From NCBI RefSeq assembly GCF_006345805.1, contig NC_042998.1:28706001-28770000 (forward strand): a stretch of 64,000 nucleotides of DNA, in the 5' to 3' direction. Positions within the stretch are counted from its first letter, which is position 1. The number at the start of each line of letters is the position of its first letter. Position numbers and translations under genes: made by a program. Below are positions 390 through 62,208 of the stretch, piece after piece. The DNA comes from Octopus sinensis (lineage: Eukaryota). The notes beneath the pieces are model-generated. The model was given only the letters and a program-made list of their open reading frames with translations, was not told the DNA's origin and searched no databases.

Positions 390-623
390 CCGGAGTAAAC
401 ACATAAATGTGAAACAAGGTGGAAAAAGAGTACTCAAATACCAGTGGTAGAGTAATATGCTTTATTTTAAGCAGCAGAAAATTCAACAAAATCTGTTACT
501 CTGAGTTTCTCGTTGCCGTTCATCAGACAGTTTTTGCTAGAATCTAGCAAAAACTGTCTGATGAACGGCAACGAGAAACTCAGAGTACAGATTTTGTTGA
601 ATTTTCTGCTGCTTAAAATAAAG
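390..623. mobile_element. Fold-back mini-element with hammerhead motif, flanked by (TA)n
   Basis: Inverted repeat 460-623 centred near 542, plus an unpaired tail at 390-459; second copy at 41680-41879. Confidence 0.85.
493..530 (-). ncRNA. Type I hammerhead ribozyme motif (mirror copy at 554-590 on +)
   Basis: CTGT-CTGATGA-ACGgcaaCGA-GAAA-CTCaGAG-TA-ACAG: stem I CTGT/ACAG, intact core, short stem III. Confidence 0.75.
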
Positions 624-10211: not shown

Positions 10212-11502
10212 CGAGGGGCGTTCAATAAGTAATGCCTCTGACCCACTTGCATTTGGTTGATCTAGCTGAAATTTGACATGTGCAATTATTTATATCTCTA
10301 TAGATTAAGTGGCAAATTACAGCTCTGAACTAATTGTGGTTTCTGATTTACAGGTGTTTGAACTGAGTCAAGTGTAAAATGGAGCCTGTTGAGTGTCGAG
10401 CAGTGATGCGGTTTTTGTATTTGAAAGGACGCACACCACGGGAGACTTTTGATGAAATGAAAGTAACTTATGGTGATGACGCCCCATCATATGACCTTGT
10501 AAAACGCTGGCATCGTGAATTCAAACATGGTCGGAACTTTGTGGAAACAGCTCCCAGATCTGGTCGCCCCCTTCTGCCATTGATGAGGCATCTGTCCGTC
10601 AAGTTGAGGCTGCTATTTTGGAAGATCGATGCATAACTATTCGCCAAACAGCCCATGAGGTCAAGATTAGTACCGGGTCTGTGGAAACTATCATTCATGA
10701 CCATTTGCATATGCAAAAGGTGTCTGCCAGATGGATTCCCAGGTTGCTCACACCTTTCCAGAAGCAAGAACGCGTCGAGTGCTCAAGGATGAATTTGGAG
10801 ATGTGCCAAGAAGATGAGTCAAAATTTTTCAAAAGACTGATTACACAGGATGAAACCTGGGTCCATCACGATGATCCAGAGACCAAAGCCCAGTCAATGC
10901 AGTGGAAGCACCGTGACTCACCCCCTCCAAAGAAGGCAAGGGTGCAGCCCTCCGCTGGCAAGGTCATGCTCACAGTCTTCTGGGACCAGGACGGAGTACT
11001 GATGACAGATTTCCTGGCAAAGGGTACCACAATTGCAGGAGCCTATTATGCTTCACTTTTGAGGAAATTAAGAGAAGCTATCAAAATCAAGAGGCGGGGC
11101 AAGATCAGCAAAGGCATCCTCCTCCTGCAGGACAACGCTCCGATCCACAACTCGCGTGTCGCCAGATCAGAAGCACAGGCGTGCGGCTATGAACTCATCC
11201 CCCATTCTCCCTACTCTCCTGACCTTGCACCCTCTGATTTTCACCTCTTCCCAGCCATGAAGTTGTTTTTGAAAGGAAAGCGTTTCCCAGATGATGCAGC
11301 CTTGATTTCTGAAGTCACGTCGTGGTTGGAGGACCAAGCTGGGGTCTTCTACAAAAACGGTCTTCAGAGCTACATCAAACGATGGGAGAAATGCGTAACT
11401 CTGGGTGGTTCCTATGTAGAAAAAGACTAATAACTGTGCCAAGTTTCGTTGCTCTACTGCTATGGGAAGTGGGTCCGGGCATTACTTATTGAACGCCCCT
11501 CG
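10212..11502 (+). mobile_element. Full-length mariner (DD34D) transposon, 1291 bp
   Basis: Perfect 25 bp TIR CGAGGGGCGTTCAATAAGTAATGCC, extending imperfectly to GACCCACTT; TA TSD at 10210-11 and 11503-04. Confidence 0.97.
10379..11430 (+). CDS. Mariner transposase, ~350 aa, with one frameshift at the C5 run 10567-10571
   Basis: HTH N-terminus, RSGRP, WIPRLLT, DETW, QDNAPIH, YSPDLAPSD; 34 residues between the second and third catalytic D. Confidence 0.92.
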
Positions 11503-17485: not shown

Positions 17486-18480
17486 CATCATCATCATCAT
17501 TTAGCATCCGTTCTCCATGCTAGCATGGGTTGGACGGTTCAACTGGGGTCTGTGAAGCTGGAAGGCTTCATCAGGCCCAGTCAGATCTGGCAGTGTTTCT
17601 ACGGCTGGATGCCCTTCCTAACGCCAACCACTCCGTGAGTGTAGTGGGTGCTTTTTACGTGCCACCTGCACAGGTGCCAGACAGAGCTGGCAAACGGCCA
17701 CGAACGGATGGTGCTTTTACGTGTCACCGGCACGGGGCCAGGCGAGGCTGGCAACGGACACGAACGGATGGTGCTTTTACGTGCCACCGGCACGGGGCCA
17801 GGCGAGGCTGGCAACGGACACGAACGGATGGTGCTTTTACGTGCCACCAACACGGGGGCCAGACAGAGCTGGCAAACGGCCACGAAACGGATGGTGCTTT
17901 TACGTGTCACCAGCACGGGGGCCAGGCGAGGCTGGCAATGGGCACGAACGGATGGTGCTTTTACATGCCACCAACATGGGGGCCAGACAGGGCTGGCAAA
18001 CGGCCACGAACGGATGGTGCTTTTACGTGTCACCGGCACGGGGGCCAGGCGAGGCTGGCAACGGACACGAACGGATGGTGCTTTTACATGTCACCGACAT
18101 GGGGGCCAGACAGGGCTGGCAAACGACCACGAACGGATGGTGCTTTTACGTGTCACCGGCATGGGGGCCAGACAGAGCTGGCAAACGGCCACGAACGGAT
18201 GGTGCTTTTACGTGTCACCGGCACGGTGGCCAGACGGAGCTGGCAAATGGCCACAAACGGATGGTACTTTTACGTGTCACCGGCACGGGGGCCAGGCCAG
18301 GCTGGCAACGAACACGAACGGATGGTGCTTTTACGTGCCACCTACACGGGGGCCAGACAGGGCTGGCGAACGGCTACGAACGGATGGTACTTTTACGTTT
18401 CACCTGCACGGGGGCCCTGATGTTGATCGACCTCAATTTGGTTTGATATTGATTTTGACTGTTCTCACTGGTCTTGCCGA
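17485..18480 (-). mobile_element. RTE 3' UTR with internal ~61 bp tandem expansion (~12 units, 17650-18420)
   Basis: (CAT)n tail at 17485; unit ACGAACGGATGGTGCTTTTACGTG(T/C)CACC...GGGGCCAG with two alternating variants. Confidence 0.85.
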
Positions 18481-19325: not shown

Positions 19326-20269
19326 AACAACATCATAGGTCAAATTGCATCATGCTACTCTACCAAACTTTGTTCTCTGAAAACAAAAGAAAAAATTGCT
19401 TCATGTTTGACATTCAAAATACATGAAAAACTAGTCTTCAGTTCTTTCTAAATTCCATTCAATAATGCTGTGAAGCAATTCCATTTCCTGGTCTTTGAAA
19501 TATATTAGTAATTAGCAGACTATAATGAATTCATACAGACTTGTGTTCTTTTACATATCATGGAAACAATTATGGCAATCTTAATCCTATTCATTTCTTA
19601 GTAAAGCTTCTAATGCTTATGGCCAAGTTCAGCATAGAAATATAGTATGACTGCTCATATTTATTTAAAAGAATTTCTGTTGCCATTGAAAGCACTGTAA
19701 TTTCAATTCTTACATTCATTCTTCTCTTGACACTTGATGTAAAAGTCAGAAGTCAAAATCACTTGAAAATTCATCTGTTTGGAGTTCAAAAATGGATTCC
19801 TGAATGCATCTGCACCTGAATTATTTCAATGGCTTTTATTTTACAAAATATTAAGGTGATCACAAAAGCTTTCAAAATAGCCCTTTCTGCCAGCAGTGTC
19901 TTCTTAGCCTAAATTTATTCTTCACTCTTAAATCTATTTCCGTCATTACATATTAAAAATGTCACTCACCCTTCCAGTCTTTGACTTTTTGCATCTCTCA
20001 TTCTCAATATATTCATGAACTGTCTTCCTTCCAGAATGGCTTGAAAATTACTTTAATAAAATAATATCAGTCTTTAGCTTTCAAGGTTCTAGTAACTAGA
20101 AATGTACTTTATATGCCCAGAAATATATTTTAGGTAGAAGAGCTTGTGATTAGGAGTACAATATTGGAAAAATGTTTTTGCTAAAATAGACTGAATTTGC
20201 AAAAATTCAAGATGTATACAAACAGAAATAAAAATTCTGAAGAAATTTCATGATATAATAGGTCTTACA

Positions 20270-20620
20270 GTCCTATATTTAAGAGATGGGGAATTATGTA
20301 CATTATTTACATTAAGATTTATATTAGATTTATAAGCCCTAAAAATTCACTCCATAATTGCCCATGGGCATATGGCATAGCGATTAAGAGTGTGGGCTAC
20401 TAACCCCAAGATTCCGAGTTCAATTCCAGTGACCTGAATAGTAATAATAATAATAATAATGATAATAATAACATTGAAAAATACCTTAGGAATGAGAACC
20501 CAGGTTTGAAATTTCCCGAAGACACCTGAAGAAGGCTGGAGGGAATATCAGCTGAGAGGTTGTGTTAACAACAAACAAGATGAGCACAAATATCCGTCAA
20601 ATATGAATAATGCAAATAAT
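20270..20620 (+). mobile_element. Family H element: inverted 3'-end fragment, then full tRNA head, (TAA)n and HHR body
   Basis: Inverted terminus at 20270-20313; head 20360-20434 with B-box GAGTTCAATTCC; decayed HHR at 20521-20566. Confidence 0.75.
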
Positions 20621-20916
20621 GTAGATAATAGGTTTCGTCACCCTTTATGATTCGATTTCTGGGTTGAGCAATATTCATTTTGTATATTTAAGATACCAAC
20701 ATAACAGTGATGCAAATTTTAAAACAAGAAATCAAAAATGCAAGCGCCAAAACTGGTCTGGATCCTACCTTTTCTTAGGAACTTTTGCTGGAAAGTTTCA
20801 GAGACAAGTTTATATTCTAGGTTAGCAAAGAGAAAATTGTTCATGCGTCTTATTCCTGTAAAGCAGAGATTGATTCATCAAATAAGATTTTTTTTTTTTA
20901 AATAACTATTGTCACT

Positions 20917-21351
20917 ATATTATTTACATTTGAAAGATATTTGTCCTCATCTTGTTTGTTGTTAACACAACATTTCGATTGATATACCCATCAGCTTTCA
21001 TCAGATGTTGTGGGGAAATTTCAAACCTGGGTTCTCATTCCTGAGGTATTTTTTGATGTTAATATAATTATAATAATTATTATTATTCTGGTCACTGCCT
21101 GGAATCATACTCGGAATCTTTGGGTTAGTAGCCCATACTCTTAACCACTATGCCTGAATAACAATAGTAATAATAATAATATCGAAAACTATCTTAGGAA
21201 TGAGAAACCAGGTTCGAAATTTCCCCCAAGACACCTGATGAAGGCTGGAGGGTATATCAGCCAAAATGTGTTAACAATGAACAAGATGAGGACAAATATC
21301 TGTCAAATGTAAATAATGTACATAATTACTCCTCTCTTAAATATAGAACTG
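20917..21351. mobile_element. Family H fold-back insertion with 13 bp TSD
   Basis: AACTATTGTCACT at 20904-20916 and 21352-21364; inverted arms each carry a decayed HHR. Confidence 0.85.
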
Positions 21352-21685
21352 AACTATTGTCACTCTTTTAGATTTAGCTTATCTTTGCTTGTAACTTTAC
21401 ATACCGTGTTGTCACTGTATCTAAATTTTCTCCTGTCTTTCATATGTTCAGCCAATGCTTTCTGCATTTTTCGGTTAGTGTGTCAATTTTTCCCCCTCAG
21501 ATATTCTTCACTGCTTGGCATTTCAGTTCTTAGGTTTTGTCCTTTATAAACATCCAGATGTTCTCTTCACATTTCCTTCAAATTGCTCTTTTCAGAAAAT
21601 TCTTTGATGTTTAAATTTTGCAATGTAAGCAACACATTTTTTCTATAACAATTCTATTATAATAAAAGTCTATATTGAGTTTTCT

Positions 21686-21725
<40 letters not shown>

Positions 21726-23364
21726 GCACTAAGGCACAGGTGTGGCTGTGTGGTAAGAAGTTTGCTTATCAACCACATGGTTCTGGGTTCAGTCCCACTG
21801 TGTGGCACCTTGAGCTAGTATCTTCTACTATAGCCTTGGGCCGACCAAAGCCTTTTGAGTGGATTTGGTAGATGGAAACTGAAAGAAGCTCAACATCATC
21901 ATCATCATTTAATGTCTGCTTTCCATGCTGGCATGGGTTGGGCAGTTTGACTGAGGTCTGAAGCGCCAGCGGCTGGATCAAGCTCCAATCGGATCTGGCA
22001 ATGTTTCTACAGCTGAATGCCCTTCCTAACGCCAACGACTCAGAGAGTGTAGTGGGTGCTTTTTACGTACCACTGGCACAGGAGCCAGTCAGGCAGGCCT
22101 GGCATCAAGCATATATACATACATACATACATATATACATATATGTATGTATGTATGTGTGTATGTTTGTGTGTCTGTGTTTGTCCACCCCATCCACCCT
22201 CATTTGGCAACCAGTGTTGGTGTGTTTACGTCCCTCTAACTTAGCGGTTCGGCAAAAGAGACCAATCGAATAAGTACTAAGCATACAAAGAATAAGTCCT
22301 GGGATCGATTCGTTTGACTAAAGGCAGTGCTCCAGCATGGCTACAGTCAAATGAATGAAACCTGTAAAAGAATAAAAGAAAACCAGTAGACTTTTAAATT
22401 AATCCCTTTTAAACCAAAGTGCTTAATCACACACTGCCTGTGTGCTGATGAAATTAACACTTACCATTGTCTGTATCCACAATGAATACAGTATTTCATA
22501 ACTGCAGATAACGAGGTTTATACTTTAGTCAATTAGATTCTCAAGGCCTCTGCGTTTAGTGCTTTTGTCTTTACAGGTTTGCTGTTGTATTGAGATTTTC
22601 TTTTTTTTTTATACACTCACCTATAAAGCTACACCACTTTATATGCTGTTTTCATATGAACTAGTTGTGACTATCTGATACCCTGTTCGCTTGATCATGC
22701 ACAGTTCTCAATTAGACTAACGACATTCAGTTGAATTAACTCTAATGAACTAAATTCAAGGAAGCATTTTCAAAGCTGTTCAACTTCCTCAATTTAACTG
22801 CCAATTTGATCTCCAGCTGACTTGTTTACCTTCAAAGAAGGTAAACATTAGGAAAATATAAAAAAAAAACCTGATGGTCACAGCTAACGATTATGATTGA
22901 GTAATTTGTTTGATCAGTTGCTTCCTTCGTATCATCGAACTGTTTAAACTAACCTGGCTAAGGCTACCTGACAACTATGTATGTTCCGAGCTGACGTTTG
23001 GTAGCGAGTTTTATGGTGCTAAACAAATAAGAGAACCTGGCAAAACACTGACAACAGATTTGAAATTATGAGCCATTGATCATATTGCTTCTATTCCAAA
23101 CATAAAAACCAATTTATCGGATGCAGATGTCCACTCGGGGTTAAAAAATCACTGAAGAGATCCATGGTCCAAATGGTCCAAATGGACAGCCATGTTGAAG
23201 TGGCTATGAACATTATTTGTTAGTACAAATATTGTGTTGATCTTTTAGAGAGATTTTAGAACTAGTATTTTTTGCTTGTTGCAAAATTAGCGACTGCATG
23301 TCACTTTAAATTATATATATTGTGAGCAGAAGTGAGCTACTGCCATCTCTAGCTGACAAGGTGT

Positions 23365-23414
23365 CCAGTACTGAAGAGAGGTAGAGATAGCCTGAAACCA
23401 GGCTGGTCTGCTGA
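23365..23414 (+). ncRNA. Type I hammerhead ribozyme motif
   Basis: CCAGTA-CTGAAGA-gAGG..CCT-GAAA-CCAGgCTGG-TC-TGCTGA; GUC cleavage triplet. Confidence 0.8.
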
Positions 23415-23705
23415 TCCCATCGCTAGAAGATGGTAGGGATTTGTGCCTCTGCTCACAATCTCTTGGATGCAACTGTGCATCATTAACCAGCTAGAAGAGA
23501 TGTCCTCTTGGGGTTAAAAAGAATCACAGTAAAATCCATTGAAACAGACAGCCATGTTGAAGTGGCTATGAACATTATGTGTCAGTACAACTACTGTGTT
23601 GATCTCTTAGAAAGATTTTCGAACTAGCATATTTGCTTGTTGTGTTCACTTGAAATATATATTGTGAGCAAAGTGAGCTGCTATCATATTTAGCAGACGA
23701 GGTGT

Positions 23706-23756
23706 CCACTACTGAGGAGGGACAAAAGTAGCCCGAAACTGGGACTGGTCTACTGG
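23706..23756 (+). ncRNA. Type I hammerhead ribozyme motif (second unit)
   Basis: CCACTA-CTGAGGA-GGG..CCC-GAAA-CTGGgaCTGG-TC-TACTGG. Confidence 0.75.
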
Positions 23757-25425
23757 TCTCATCAACTGGGAGATGGTAGGGGTTTGCTCCCCTGCTTGCA
23801 ATTTTATCGGATGCAGCTGTGCGTCGTTAATCAGCTAGAGGAGATGTCCTCTTGGGGTTAAATTGCAGTAGAGTCTGTTCAAATCCTTTTTTTTTTCTTC
23901 CCCAAATTCGGAACTGATGTAAAGTAAAATTGTTTTCAGAAAGAACTTAAACTCTGATTCTCAGTAAAGCATTAAATCCTTGCATTTTTAACCAATAGCT
24001 GAAATAATCATATGGATATAGCTTTGGCCAGAGAGAATTGAACTATTCAGTGCAAATTCCATCTTGAATTCAACATAGGCCTTTTTTTTTTTATGATTTT
24101 GGACAAAAGGAATAATTCTCTGTGCTCAGTTTACTTGTCTTTTAGGAAAGGGTTATAATTGTTCAGAGAATATCTGCCATTCTCATAATTATTTTTACAT
24201 TACATTTTCTCTGCTTGCATACATTAGATGAGTCTTCTTCAGTACCAGATATTGTCACATTTCTTGACCCCTAACGCTCTTTCTCAAATTTGATCCCTCT
24301 CATCCTTCAGCGTATATCACTTGGCCCTTTCCTTTTTCACATATATCCACACCCTCCACATATATCCTGTGGCATGGGTTGAACGGTTTGACAGGAGCCA
24401 GCAAGCTGCAGAGCTGCCCCAGGCTCCAATTGTCTGTTTTGGAATGCTGTCACTTCTTATTTCTTTACTACCTACAAGGGGCTAAACACAGAGGGAACAA
24501 ACAAGGACAGACAAAGGGATTAAGTCGGTTACATCGACCCCAGTGCATAACTGGTACTTATTTAATCAACCCTGAAAGGATGAAAGGCAAAGTCGACCTC
24601 GGCAGAATTTGAACTCAGAACGTAGCGGCAGACGAAATACTGCTAAGCATTTCACCCGGCGTGCTAACTTTTCTGCCAGCTCGCCACATTAATACAGTCA
24701 CTTCTCTTATACAATTGCATCTGATTCCTCTGATACTCAGTTTTTCTCTCAGCTCATTCCTCTGTTATTCATGCCTACCAACAATACACATCCCACAGAG
24801 TCTACTCACCTCATTTCTTTCCAGTCTTCATGCATCCTCTTCACACACTTTTAGCAAGGGTTGCTAATAATGCATCATTGCATTTTATACCCGAATATCA
24901 TACAATTTACCCTTCACTCAGGGAGAGAATCTCATCATTGTCAGTAGAGGTAATCATCATCATCGTTTAACGTCCGCTTTCCATGCTAGCATGGGTTGGA
25001 CGATTTGACTGAGGGCTGGTGAATCAGATGGCTGCACCAGGCTTCAATATTGATCTGGCAGAGTTTCTACAACTGGATGCCCTTCCTAACGCCAACCACT
25101 CCGAGAGTGTAGTGGATGCTTTTACGTGCCACCAGCATGGGGGCCAGTCAGGCGATACTGGCAACGACCTCACTCAAATCTTTTACACATGCCACCGGAA
25201 CAGATGCCAGTAAGGTGATGCTACTCTCTCTCAATTTATCCACTATTTTCTTTGGTTGAATATTAAGCTTTTCGATCCCCCACTTCCACAACTAGGTCAC
25301 ATAGATAACAAAACCTACCTTCTACTTCTGTTCAGTCATCTTAGCAACATTATAGGCCCCAGGGAGAAATCCGTGCACTGGACCCTATAGTGTTTATTTA
25401 TTGACAGTAAACTATAGTCTACATA

Positions 25426-25990
25426 CGAGGGTGAGTAAAAAAGTAATGCCATTTTATTTAGGACAGGTATAATTACCAACACAGGAACATGTATCATAAG
25501 GTGGTGAGCTGGCAGAAACATTAGCACACCAGGCGAAATGCTTTGCGGTATTTTGACTGTCTTTACGTTCTAAGTTCAAATTCTGCCGAGGTCGACTTTA
25601 GCTTTCATCTTTTCGGGGTCGATAAATTAAGTACCAGTTATGCACTGGGGTCGATGTAATCGACTTAATCTCTTTGTCTGTCCTTGTTTGTCCCCTCTGT
25701 ATGTAGCCCATTGTGGGCAATAAAGAAATAAGAAACATGTATCATACATCAAAATGAAGCTGGTCCTCTGTGGATCACATCCCTACTTTTCAACATAGTC
25801 ACCATTTTGCTCAATAGCAATGTTCTACCTTCGAATGAGAGCATGTATCCCTGCCTCGTAAAATTCTGTTGACTGTTCTTTGAGCCACTTCTTCACAATA
25901 GCTTTCACTTCCTCATCACTGGAATAATTTAGCGCCTTCAGACTATCCCTCTGGCCCCATAAAAGAGGATTTGAGAGGCAAACATTATTG
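25426..25990 (-). pseudogene. Mariner 3' remnant interrupted by SINE B (25498-25731)
   Basis: TA-CGAGGGTGAGTAAAAAAGTAATGCC TIR; YSSDEEVKAIVKKWLKEQSTEFYEAGIHAL...GDYVEK; SINE TSD AACATGTATCATA; small inverted LAPSDY fragment. Confidence 0.75.
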
Positions 25991-26227
25991 AGAAAGAGAT
26001 GGGAGTTATGTCAGATATTTAACTATAACATAAGAGTACATTGATATTTAATTAATTTAATTTCATTCAGTCATGAATTTACGTCCATTCTGTATGAAAC
26101 GATCGTCTGCAAGAATTAAACTTTTTATATATTTTAACAACTCGTTTCCTCCATTTTTAACAAAATTGATGGGATTTATGAAATTTCATTCCATAAATCT
26201 CCATACACTATATATATAAATATATAT

Positions 26228-26535
26228 CGCCGTGATCACCGTGACCGACCAGGATATCAGATGTTGCTATACGTCGCTGGTCAGAATGCGCTTTGCATTG
26301 TTTTAGCCTTCAAATGAGGCCATCCCGCTGGCTAAGTGAGCAGGCCAACAGAAGAATGAGTGAGAGAAAATTGTGGTGAAAGAGTACAACAGGGATCGCC
26401 ACTACCCCCTGCCGGAGCCTCGTGGTACTTTAGGTGTTTTCGCTCAATAAACACTCACAACATCCGGTCTGGGAATCGAAATCGCGATCCTACAACCGCA
26501 AGTCCGCTGCCCTAACTACTGGGCCATTGCGCCTC

Positions 26536-26538
<3 letters not shown>
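26228..26538 (-). mobile_element. SINE family D with alternative 3' tail
   Basis: Same head and body as 11738-12118 but an unrelated tail. Confidence 0.8.
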
Positions 26539-26573
<35 letters not shown>

Positions 26574-27148
26574 TACACACACACACACATATATATGCAC
26601 ATACAGACATATGTATATATATATACACACACATATATATGCACATATACATATACACACACACACACACATATACATGCACATATATACACACACATGC
26701 ACATACACACAGATACATACATATATATATGTACACACATATACACACACATATATACACACATATATATACACATATATACACACACATATACACACAC
26801 ATATACATATATATATATACACACACACACACACGTATATATACGGACATATTTGTATATTCTCTGTTGTGTATTTGATAGGTTTCTGTTTTATTAATAT
26901 ATAATTATTCCATAACTTATATAATTACATATTCATCCTTACAGCAAAATTGATTTTGCCAAATATTATACATACGCCCTATGTTTCTATACATATAAAC
27001 GAACATATTGATCTTGTTACTGATGATACTGTCATTGTTTCTGCCGCTTGTTGTTGTTATTTTAGTCATATATATACACACACACACACATGTATATATA
27101 CACACACACATATATATACACACACACATATATGTATATATATACACG

Positions 27149-36573: not shown

Positions 36574-36629
36574 GTGGATGTCTCTGATGAGAACCCAGTA
36601 AGGTTTGAAAATTGATTAAGGATGTTCAT
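36574..36629 (+). ncRNA. Type I hammerhead motif
   Basis: GTGGATGTCT-CTGATGA-GAACCcagtaaGGTTT-GAAA-ATTGAT-TA-AGGATGTTCAT; element ends ~70 bp later in (TA)n. Confidence 0.65.
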
Positions 36630-37678
36630 CCTTTTTTCAGTCTGCAGAGAAATGGCAAAAATTTGCCCTGTTTATAATTATGCCATATGTTACGTGTATA
36701 TATATATATATATATATATGGGTGTGTGTGATTGTGTATAGAAGAATATATTAATAAAAAGAATTCCAACCTTGTCTGATTTTCACGTTTTATTTACAAT
36801 CTTATAATGATATATTATAAGATAATATATTATAATTGAATAAAATAAAATAAAATGAAATAGTAGAATGTTAAATATTCATTCTGATTGAACTAGTACT
36901 TTCATGCATTGAATTCTGCAATCTTCGGGTTCATGTAGTAGTGTTGACAGTCATGCTTCACAATTTTTGACTGTAGCAAGATGATTGATTCTGTGCTATA
37001 AATACAGCTGGGTAGGCTCCAGAGTGCTAGGTTTTGCAAACTGTATTCTGACCAATCAGTGTGTAGTATCACTCAATTACTTAAGCTGATTGGTTGGTTG
37101 AGCTGATTGGTTTAGGCATCACGCTTTGTTGGACATGTCAAAAGTCCTGTATCTTGACCCTGGCCGAAGCAGCAATTGTTGGGTTATTTTTAGAAATGTT
37201 GTAAATATCCTTTGTCAGAGATTTTTATATTTTTATATTTTTATATTTCAATTGTCATCATCATCATTGTCAGCACCTTAATTATTGTTGCTAGTGGTGA
37301 TGGTTATGGCAATAGAACTTTTAACCCTAAATAAGATAATTTTCTGCTATCTTCGTCTTGATCACCTTTAGTATTGTTGTTGTTGTTAGTGGTCATGGTC
37401 GTAGCAGTGGAAGTAATACCTCTAAGTATTATTATTATTATTATTGCTTATTTAGTTTGGGTTCGAATTTATCAATAAATTCTTTTCTCTGATTTTCCTC
37501 TCGATTTCACTTGGGCTGTGTAATTTGTAGAATGGAAATATTATATATATTTTCCGACCACATGTTGCTAGGTGGTTACTCAAAGGTATCTGACGGACCT
37601 CTGGGTCTCTAATCTGTTGCCGGTGTACACGTGAGCGTTCTAATAGTGCGTTTCCCGTCTGACCTACATATATTTCTA

Positions 37679-45700: not shown

Positions 45701-45900
45701 TAAATCAGAGTAATTTTTGTATATTGTTACTAAACATCAAATAAGCTGACTTACCAAATTTTCTTACTCCAGGCTGAAGGAGATGGCTCTAGCACACACT
45801 TTGAACACACCCTACTAATCATTGCTTGTCACAGCTAACTCATTTGCAGAATGCAGTTGAAAGATTTGGAAGTGGGTTTTGCAATAAAACTGTGTGTTAA

Positions 45901-46607
45901 CCCTTTCGTTACCAATCCAACTGAAACCACCTCTGGCTCTGTATTACAAATGTCTTGTTTTCAAAAGTTCTGAATTAAAATCTTCCACCAGACCTTAGTC
46001 ACAATTTATGTACCTAAGACTAGCTTAATGATGACTAAGTTATTTTACTAAATTCTTTGTTACATTTAAAATGAATTGAAAGAAACACAGAACATCTCAA
46101 CAGAAATATGGTAACAAAAGGGTTAAAAAATGATCAATTTAAACCCTTTTGATACCAACCCACTTGAAACCACCTTAGGTTCTGTAGTACAAATGTCCTA
46201 TTTTCATAGGTTTTGAATTAAAATCTTGCACCAAACCTTAGTCACAATTTATGTTCCTGACACTAGCTTAATGATAACTAAGTTATTTTACTAAGTTCTT
46301 TGTTATATTTAAAATTAATTGAAAGAAACATTGAACATCTCAACAGAAATATGGTAACAAAAGGGTTAAAAAATGATTAATTTGACCCTTTCATTTCCAA
46401 CCCAGTTGAAACTGCTTCTGGCTCTGTAGTAGAAATGTCTTGTTTTCATAAGTCCTGAATTAAAATCTTCCACCAAACCTTAGTCGCAATTTATGTTCCT
46501 AACACTAGCTGAATGATAAATAAGTTATTTTACTAAATTCTTTGTTATACTTAAAATTAATTGAAAGAAACACAGAGCATCTCAACAGAAATATGCTAAC
46601 AAAAGGA
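45901..46607. mobile_element. Three tandem piggyBac-type MITEs (~222 bp each)
   Basis: TTAA-CCCTTTCGTTACCA...TGGTAACAAAAGGG-TTAA; copies at 45901-46122, 46144-46365 and 46386-46607. Confidence 0.85.
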
Positions 46608-46810
46608 TTAAACTGGACAAAAATGAAACAGAAACTTATGAAATGCTCCAAACTTCTCTTTGCTGGCACACGAGTTTCAAAAGTGGAAGAGAGGAGGTGA
46701 GAGATGATGAAAGGTGTGGGAAGGAGAGGCACATCAGAACATAAGAGCTGATTGAGGTAATCTGCTTTTCTGAATGAAGGCTGTTGTGTATCTTTAAAAA
46801 CAATACGCAT

Positions 46811-46998
46811 GCATTATTTACGTTATTTACATTTGACGGATATGTATCCTCATCTTGTTTGTTGTTACCACAACGTTTCAGCTGATTTACTCTCCAGCCT
46901 TCATCAGGTGTCCAGGTGGAATTTTGAACCCAACCCTGGATTCTAATTCCTAAGGTATTTTTTGCTGATGTTATTATTATTATTATTATTATTATTAT
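46811..46998 (-). mobile_element. Family H fragment with intact HHR core (46867-46912)
   Basis: GACAC-CTGATGA-AGGCTG...CAGCT-GAAA-CG-TT-GTGGT. Confidence 0.75.
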
Positions 46999-52940: not shown

Positions 52941-53177
52941 GTTCTATAATTAAGAGATGAGGAATTATGTACGTTATTTACATTTGACGGATATTTGTCC
53001 TAATCTTGTTTGTTGTTAACACAACGTTTCAGCTGTCATACCCACCAGCCTTCATCAGGTGTCTTGGGGAAATTTTGAACCTGGGTTCCCATTCCTAAGG
53101 TATTTTTCTATGTTGTTATTATTATTATTATTATTATTGTTATTGTTATTATTATTATTATTATTCCAGGCAGTGAA

Positions 53178-53211
<34 letters not shown>

Positions 53212-53358
53212 TCGAAAAATACTTTAGGAATGAGAACTCAGGTTTGAAATTTCCTCAAGACACCTGATGAAGGCTGGAGGGTATATCAGCTGAAACGTTG
53301 TGTTAACAACAAACAAGATGAGGACAAATATCTGTCAAATGTAAATAATGTAAATAAT
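52941..53358. mobile_element. Family H fold-back with intact HHRs on both strands (53018-53063 on -, 53259-53304 on +)
   Basis: GACAC-CTGATGA-A-GGCTG..CAGCT-GAAA-CG-TT-GTGTT on each arm; unpaired tail at 52941-52963. Confidence 0.85.
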
Positions 53359-61707: not shown

Positions 61708-62208
61708 GAAATAATATATTTCTAAATCTCTCAGAGAGATTTATGCAGTAACAGCATGATAAAGTGATAGCATGTTGTCAACTTAATGTGACAGTCCCCT
61801 GAAAGGGAAGAATGCTACTGTAATTTAGCCCTAGGAAACACCGTTCCCTGTTGGACTTGACACATTTCCTGTGTTCTTATGTTTTCAAAGTGGAGACAAG
61901 CACCTCCACCCAGCAAAACCAGTATCCAGAGACTAGTTTCAGAGTCCTTGCTCATCATCAGTCTGGAGTAGCATGGCTTGCTAGCTGCCAACACCTATCC
62001 ACCCTTGAAAAGATATGTGATGAGCAGTGACTCTGAAACTAGTCTCTGGATGCTGGATTTGCTGGCTGGAGGTGCTTGTCTCCACTTTGAAAACATAAGG
62101 ATACAGGATATGTGTCAACTCCAACAGGAAACGGTGTTTCCTAGGGCTAAATAACAGTAGCATTCTTCCCTTTCATGGGACTGTCACATTAAGTTGACAA
62201 CATGCTAT
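61708..62208. mobile_element. Fold-back HHR element with ~20 bp TSD
   Basis: Arms ~61765-61957 and 62017-62210; CATCTGTGAACTTG(A/C)AAATA at 61688 and 62209. Confidence 0.85.
61925..61967 (-). ncRNA. Type I hammerhead ribozyme motif, canonical core
   Basis: TCCAGA-CTGATGA-tGAGcaaggaCTCt-GAAA-CTAG-TC-TCTGGA; perfect 6 bp stem I, palindromic stem III, GUC triplet. Confidence 0.85.

Follow-up and report, generated by a model that had tools for sequence, protein, structure and literature searches.

A decayed two-subtype copy of a dispersed hammerhead repeat family in Octopus sinensis and the Penelope-like footprint of its relatives

The locus at positions 23110-23884 of the 64,000-nucleotide stretch of Octopus sinensis DNA analysed here (the window) is best read as a decayed A/B mosaic of a dispersed, non-coding hammerhead family, that is, a non-LTR retrozyme, likely copied in trans by the RT-endonuclease of a Penelope-like element (PLE), and probably from self-cleaved, circularised RNA. 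We hold this composite reading with reasonable, though not full, confidence. Judged by its sequences, the family is a real retrozyme type with strong PLE footprints. PLE mobilisation of animal retrozymes has so far been argued from co-occurrence and pLTR homology; an insertion footprint and a covarying fold now point to it, and the footprint names the RNA sites that a PLE enzyme would recognise. Taken by itself, the window copy is an ordinary fossil repeat. Of live interest are two young sister families, Y and Z, which make the question of a circular versus a linear template testable.

The window sequence and a repeat search reveal ~2.1 head-to-tail units, two of them diverged and flanked by stubs, in agreement with the ~2.2 diverged tandem units proposed in a first-pass annotation of the bare sequence. 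The units are 78% alike, with start-to-start spacings of 341-373 nt. The array at 23110-23884 is absent from the output of Tandem Repeats Finder, and no ORF of at least 120 aa is present at the locus. Positions within the unit are numbered from u1, the base following GGGGTTAAA. The features of the locus are as follows.

23110-23176, forward strand: 5' stub, approximately u297-u20 in family numbering, with a 27-nt deletion
23177-23573, forward strand: subfamily-A segment (unit 1 with the beginning of unit 2), A at 18 of 20 diagnostic columns
23365-23414, forward strand: hammerhead 1, type I, core CUGAAGA at 23371, GAAA at 23394, predicted cut after 23408
23573-23680, forward strand: A-to-B switch interval, holding u61 (23580) and u119 (23638), with the ribozyme cut site outside
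23583-23884, forward strand: subfamily-B segment (remainder of unit 2 and ~25 nt of a third unit), B at 12 of 15 diagnostic columns
23706-23756, forward strand: hammerhead 2, type I, core CUGAGGA at 23712, predicted cut after 23750

The 5' stub has a messy junction with a 9-nt repeat and is B-like at two of three diagnostic columns. Unit 2 carries a 15-nt deletion directly past u119, which explains the figure of 341-345 nt obtained from the window; the family unit measures 356-359 nt, so that the ~345-bp unit of the annotation describes the spacing at this locus and not the family. The copy has neither a canonical 3' end nor an (AT)n flank.

Every core letter is intact in both hammerheads, with C3 of CUGANGA at 23371 and 23712 and the GUC triplets ending at 23408 and 23750, as annotated. 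The proper CCAG/CTGG stem III ascribed to them is found only in hammerhead 1 (ACCA/UGGU), whereas that of hammerhead 2 (ACUG/UGGU) includes two G-U pairs. Stem I of hammerhead 1 is formed by 23365-23370 and 23409-23414; its terminal pair is mismatched, stem II is closed by a U-G pair, and positions 10.1 and 11.1 are occupied by G and U. In hammerhead 2, stem I is interrupted by a C-C mismatch and stem II by an A-C mismatch. The stems of both ribozymes are damaged. A search of window positions 20000-27000 against Rfam gave no hammerhead match at E<=1.

Searching the octopus genome (2.7 Gb) with the unit revealed, among the best 40 of 1526 candidates scored, at least 119 matches, all but the window's own at 74-95% identity, and the use of unit 1 as query added further matches. 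Because matches at this identity occur at many loci, the repeat is not a chance occurrence; 77 loci were examined for the ends of their arms. Before counting, the set was cleared of twice-fetched loci (15 of L001-L070 and 8 of L144-L173), of L130, which duplicates L129, and of arms shorter than 45-60 nt. An exact 31-mer of the family occurs 41 times genome-wide and in 10 of the 96 segments in hand, and scaling by it puts the family at ~400 segments, which is probably a minimum. The majority sequence, built from 55 loci, has 359 columns, 17 of which distinguish the subfamilies A (28 loci), B (19 loci) and an intermediate C (7 loci, assigned by eye and excluded from the switch count).

Copies diverge by 7-8% at non-CpG and 24-30% at CpG positions, the youngest by 3.6%, and are mostly dispersed and partial, with a median of 0.5 unit in the motif-picked set. 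The family majority has a complete hammerhead core, and the subfamily majorities have a GC content of 0.48. Among 67 segments that cover the ribozyme, 25 keep the core and three keep the core, G10.1-C11.1 and all stem pairs. The core has changed by 6.6% against 8.0% overall (non-CpG), and the genomic copies therefore show no sign of selection. Rfam returned only a weak HH9 match in one of five family loci (21.6 bits against a gathering threshold of 52). In the loci examined there is no ORF in or continuous with the units, nor the RT and GIY-YIG ORF between pLTRs that autonomous PLEs possess. At the level of sequence, the proposed assignment to the non-LTR retrozymes stands: the unit is non-coding, 356-359 nt long and multi-locus, carries one type I hammerhead, has a GC content below 50% and is predicted to form a self-paired circle. 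Two candidate boundaries were rejected, namely GGGGTTAAA as the end of the element, which is the edge of the query, and a shared flank upstream of the units as the end of an ORF, which is a common SINE-like repeat. Several copies (L154, L164, L172) are broken or expanded at ATATATAT, which lies within the unit at u150-159.

The two window units did not arise by duplication of a single template, for they belong to different subfamilies: unit 1 is A and most of unit 2 is B. The switch is loosely mapped, with a 93% probability of falling within u54-u178 (38% for u54-64, 35% for u64-164 and 20% for u164-178), an interval that contains both 3'-end sites of the family (see below) and excludes the cut. 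The most likely cause would be the joining in register of an A-type and a B-type product, by a template switch or by re-initiation near a start site. For the mosaic only, a later event at the DNA level is a possible second explanation to which we give somewhat less credence: an A segment may have entered a B-type array by ectopic gene conversion or recombination, or an A copy may have inserted in a B copy. The B-A-B pattern in register fits such an event, as does the rarity of switches: among 26 multi-cycle arms, that of the window is the only one to show a switch, and at other loci the two arms nearly always belong to a single subfamily. Against it stand the 5' junction, which is messy and not clean, and the presence of both RT start sites inside the switch interval; this last argument is weak because the interval spans about one-third of the unit. 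The joining of two products during reverse transcription is taken as the somewhat likelier origin of the mosaic.

The ends of the copies carry the footprint. In the 77 loci, 82 of 117 arms have their 3' end at u55-68 or u107-128, windows that make up 10% of the unit (p 3e-54), with modes at u61 and u119, ~171 and ~229 nt past the cut. Loci picked only by the exact 31-mer behave similarly (23 of 38 arms), and the ends of the sister families lie at matching places (39 of 40 arms in Y, 23 of 26 in Z). An (AT)3 is found within 25 nt after 40 of 82 canonical ends in the window's family, 39 of 39 in Y and 21 of 23 in Z. Arms are often paired head-to-head, and in most such pairs one arm ends at the proximal site and its partner at the distal site (19 of 32 in the window's family, 10 of 12 in Y and 7 of 10 in Z). 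The family thus displays the features of a PLE-mobilised element, with two fixed 3' ends, an inverted 5'-truncated arm and an AT-rich or microsatellite target. In the available text of Craig et al. (PMC8557442), PLEs are described as forming partial tandems, carrying a tail of 30-40 bp at one end, being adjoined by an inverted copy with a truncated 5' end and favouring microsatellites; Frangieh et al. (PMC11167929) place the tail between two internal sites at which RT starts. The end pattern matches both descriptions, as far as these accounts extend, which counts for copying by a PLE.

At their 5' side, 83 of 117 arms read through the cut site and two start at it, with no pile-up. An apparent 5' pile-up near the cut was rejected as a product of padded realignment across inverted junctions; it disappeared with the raw boundaries. 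A clustering of 5' ends 33-52 nt beyond the cut is strong in Z (9 of 26 arms) and weak in the window's family (12 of 117, p 0.03), and Y lacks it (3 of 40); given this unevenness, it is not claimed as general. Two cut sites are crossed by 12 of 183 arms of the three families. Together, the read-through and the two-cut arms imply that the template was a circle or an uncleaved multimer, and that a cleaved linear monomer is not the usual template. Arm lengths (n=183, three families) exceed one unit in 75 cases (42 of 117 in the window's family), 1.25 units in 48, 1.5 in 18, 1.75 in four and two units in one, the chimeric window copy; no long arrays were seen, and the fall-off is steeper than free rolling on a circle might give. 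Variants are shared within arms at 18-24% and between loci at 2-8%, a difference that does not separate circle from multimer.

Two young homologous families, Y and Z, were found beside PLE loci.

L107-L131 (query L104:7008-7296): family Y, with a palindromic CUCGAG stem III and ends at y183 and y226-229 against (AT)n
L174-L188 (query L103:5764-6100, minus strand): family Z, with a U3-A8 core and A10.1-U11.1

Family Y has a 352-nt unit (2030 candidates, best copies 94-99% alike) and Z a 360-nt unit (2646 candidates, best copies 95-98% alike); they are the younger relatives whose existence the first-pass annotation had anticipated. The repeat is multi-locus and its hammerhead is kept across subfamilies and sisters; its arms have the length distribution given above and form no long arrays. 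Both sisters are 53-55% identical to the window's family and 51% to each other. The tail between the two ends measures ~58 nt in the window's family, ~45 nt in Y and ~59 nt in Z. In 14 of 16 copies of Z, the core reads UUGAUAA, equivalent to U3-A8, a covariation that is known in schistosome PLEs according to the text seen of PMC4209133. The stems III of Y and Z are short and palindromic, so that dimers would be needed. A further homologous repeat, ~73% like Y and arranged as an inverted pair (L106:4549-4944, the same as L097:97-329), is possibly a fourth family.

The predicted circular fold is conserved. Compared with 40 shuffles, it has z values of -8.0 for the A majority, -6.1 for the B majority and -7.6 for a natural Y unit. 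Of the pairs predicted from A only, Y holds 75 of 118 with 24 two-sided changes (slid controls 43-53 and 0-6), and Z holds 84 of 119 with 26 two-sided changes (slid controls 39-54 and 2-5), a covariation drawn from three families only and measured against a slid control that by construction undercounts two-sided changes. In the secondary-structure ensemble, a model that leaves tertiary contacts outside, the stems I, II and III of the active hammerhead have probabilities of 0.46, 0.01 and 0 in A, and 0.20, 0.83 and 0.14 in B.

From these data, the following cycle may be proposed. A copy longer than one unit would be transcribed, the type I hammerhead would cut after GUC, and a host ligase would close a branched circle of 356-359 nt, as predicted by analogy with the retrozymes of mussel, coral and axolotl. 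A GIY-YIG endonuclease, deduced from the footprint observed at the copies, would then nick (AT)n DNA, and reverse transcription would begin within the RNA at one of two fixed sites, ~171 or ~229 nt past the cut. The cDNA would pass the cut junction and stop at variable 5' positions, and a second, inverted arm would often start at the other site. Copies made in this way decay, and their cores show no sign of being under selection. Self-cleavage and circles are predictions for the window's family, and the secondary-structure ensemble leans against the active fold even for the subfamily majorities.

That last result would also suit a non-autonomous parasite of PLEs that is copied from linear read-through RNA left uncleaved, in which the hammerhead would be a slow or protein-dependent passenger and the circle no part of the cycle. 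The scarcity of arms above 1.75 units and the lack of long arrays agree with it. So does a lizard PLE for which, in the portion of PMC11167929 available, unprocessed RNA is reported as the main substrate in vitro and hammerhead cleavage as dispensable, as well as the cleavage of one of nine Xenopus dimers in the available text of Li, Clavereau and Pollet (2026, bioRxiv 10.64898/2026.07.22.740005). We nevertheless consider such a parasite unlikely. Three families of 51-55% pairwise identity have retained the core together with the 3-8 tertiary pair, including the U3-A8 double change, and 12 arms cross two cut sites in a genome where sources of at least two units are almost absent. The preferred template is still a self-cleaved circle.

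It may even be, although we advance this only tentatively and would not expect all of it to hold, that the three families share a single RNA-circle chassis and both Penelope-type RT start sites, and swap the style of the hammerhead (a 4-bp stem III, a palindromic minimal form, a U3-A8 core); the window mosaic would then reflect an enzyme switching between two RNA circles. If true, young families and intact PLE proteins in one genome would constitute a system to show that ribozyme-made circles template the spread of animal retrozymes.

Candidate enzymes are abundant. A GIY-YIG search of the genome gave at least 147 matches among the best 150 scored of 5029 candidates, and two young PLE families have intact RT and GIY-YIG ORFs of 775 and 781 aa with a CX4CXXC linker of the Neptune/Nematis type. 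The RVT_1 domain scores just below the cut-off in these ORFs, and GIY-YIG scores above it.

L104 and L132-L143: autonomous PLE of young age, whose RT-GIY-YIG ORF measures 775-777 aa and is preceded by an open frame of 450-467 aa
L101-L103 and L105: second young PLE family, with an ORF of 780-781 aa and an upstream frame of up to 479 aa, ending at (AT)n

The pLTR of L104 has a minimal hammerhead, CCGAAGA (U4C), with a palindromic AGUACU stem III, which reads CUGAAGA in the degraded copies L135 and L140; a 99%-identical direct repeat with a minimal hammerhead is present in L105. The unit has no sequence match in the pLTRs of these two autonomous families, which leaves the PLE partner a putative one. 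The Y copy beside the PLE ORF in L104 was considered as a pLTR and rejected, being absent from 12 other copies of that PLE.

These comparisons also bear on the view that the units are pLTR fragments of 5'-truncated autonomous PLEs and not an independent retrozyme family. The end signature is the same as that of PLEs, the Xenopus retrozymes match pLTRs in the available text of bioRxiv 10.64898/2026.07.22.740005, and the detailed comparison covers two autonomous families out of the 5029 GIY-YIG candidates. The arms, by contrast, consist of head-to-tail unit sequence over as many as 1.9 units and contain no ORF, the flank common to the units is the SINE-like repeat, and the Y copy of L104 is missing elsewhere, as noted. 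Pieces of pLTR are thus a very improbable source of the units, and an independent family remains the preferred reading.

As to the window copy itself, cleavage at both sites had been expected to release a 342-nt monomer (23409-23750) able to circularise. This expectation is not upheld. Stem I of the monomer, read from the sequence, would combine the 5' strand of hammerhead 2 with the 3' strand of hammerhead 1, with two mismatches and one wobble in six pairs. The monomer is a B/A hybrid whose circular fold is little better than that of shuffled sequences (z -1.6; family units, -6 to -8), and all window hammerhead stems, including the re-formed one, have a predicted probability of ~0 in the secondary-structure ensemble, which is weak evidence because the subfamily majorities score poorly as well. 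On these models, the predicted 342-nt circle would not re-form a hammerhead.

Contigs of related organism B span the 5' junction (22551-23205) with zero differences, and contigs of related organism D span the 3' junction (23833-24483); the insertion is therefore older than those splits. The run of related organism E enters the element by 20 nt only, too short to bridge a junction. In a run presumed to be RNA, family-like contigs lie on the unit and none on the unique flanks, and the adjoining SINE-like repeat is also heavily covered; the run is taken neither for nor against expression. The copy is probably an old, decayed two-subtype fossil that gives rise to circles no more. In favour of a locus that is active, or has been co-opted, as a source of the 342-nt circular RNA, one could cite the two intact cores and GUC sites (only 25 of 67 family segments keep the core) and an insertion common to related organisms; such a role is most improbable in view of the damaged stems, the fold and a CpG-type decay similar to that of other copies.

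The family resembles the metazoan non-LTR retrozymes described by Cervera and de la Pena (2020, PMC7229834; mussel repeats of 350-390 bp), as presented in the text available, in its 350-360-nt non-coding unit with one type I hammerhead, a GC content below 50%, a highly self-paired predicted circle and co-existing PLEs, which that paper names as candidate mobilisers. It differs from them in consisting mostly of dispersed partial copies and in being known from sequence alone. The fixed double 3' ends, the inverted arms and the (AT)n target are features of the octopus family that the accessible account in PMC7229834 does not describe, and neither octopus nor cephalopods are mentioned in the main text of that paper.

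The PLE-derived retrozymes of Xenopus (bioRxiv 10.64898/2026.07.22.740005, whose sampling, in the text available, covers 31 vertebrates, three insects and a coral) share the proposed PLE link and the dispersed monomers and dimers. In Xenopus, according to the same text, the link consists of pLTR homology and co-occurrence, whereas in the octopus it consists of the insertion footprint, with no homologous pLTR in two PLE families. Similarities to PLEs (Poseidon PAc, PMC11167929; Neptune/Naiad and the non-autonomous Chlamys, PMC8557442), as far as the portions available describe them, include two internal start sites bounding the tail, a hammerhead placed upstream of these sites, partial tandems, an inverted 5'-truncated arm and a target that is AT-rich or (TA)n. 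Unlike these PLEs, the octopus family has no ORF, its tail measures ~58 nt and not 30-40 nt, and its hammerhead departs from the minimal form through a 4-bp stem III and a long extension of stem I. Neither hammerhead nor ribozyme appears in the main text of the octopus genome repeat annotation seen (PMC13282606), and no title or abstract opening was found that describes a double-end footprint in retrozymes; supplements of papers could list such families.

Elsewhere in the window, at 10519-11430 on the forward strand, there is a 303-aa open frame that we take to resemble a mariner-type transposase. Tandem Repeats Finder located arrays at 17647-18416 (62-bp period) and 45897-46612 (243-bp period). 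Other CUGANGA...GAAA motifs that resemble minimal PLE-type hammerheads occur as inverted pairs at 485-526 (reverse strand) with 558-598 (forward), and at 53017-53058 (reverse) with 53264-53305 (forward). Further motifs of this minimal appearance are found at 20963-21004, 46866-46907 and 61915-61961 on the reverse strand and at 36584-36630 on the forward strand.
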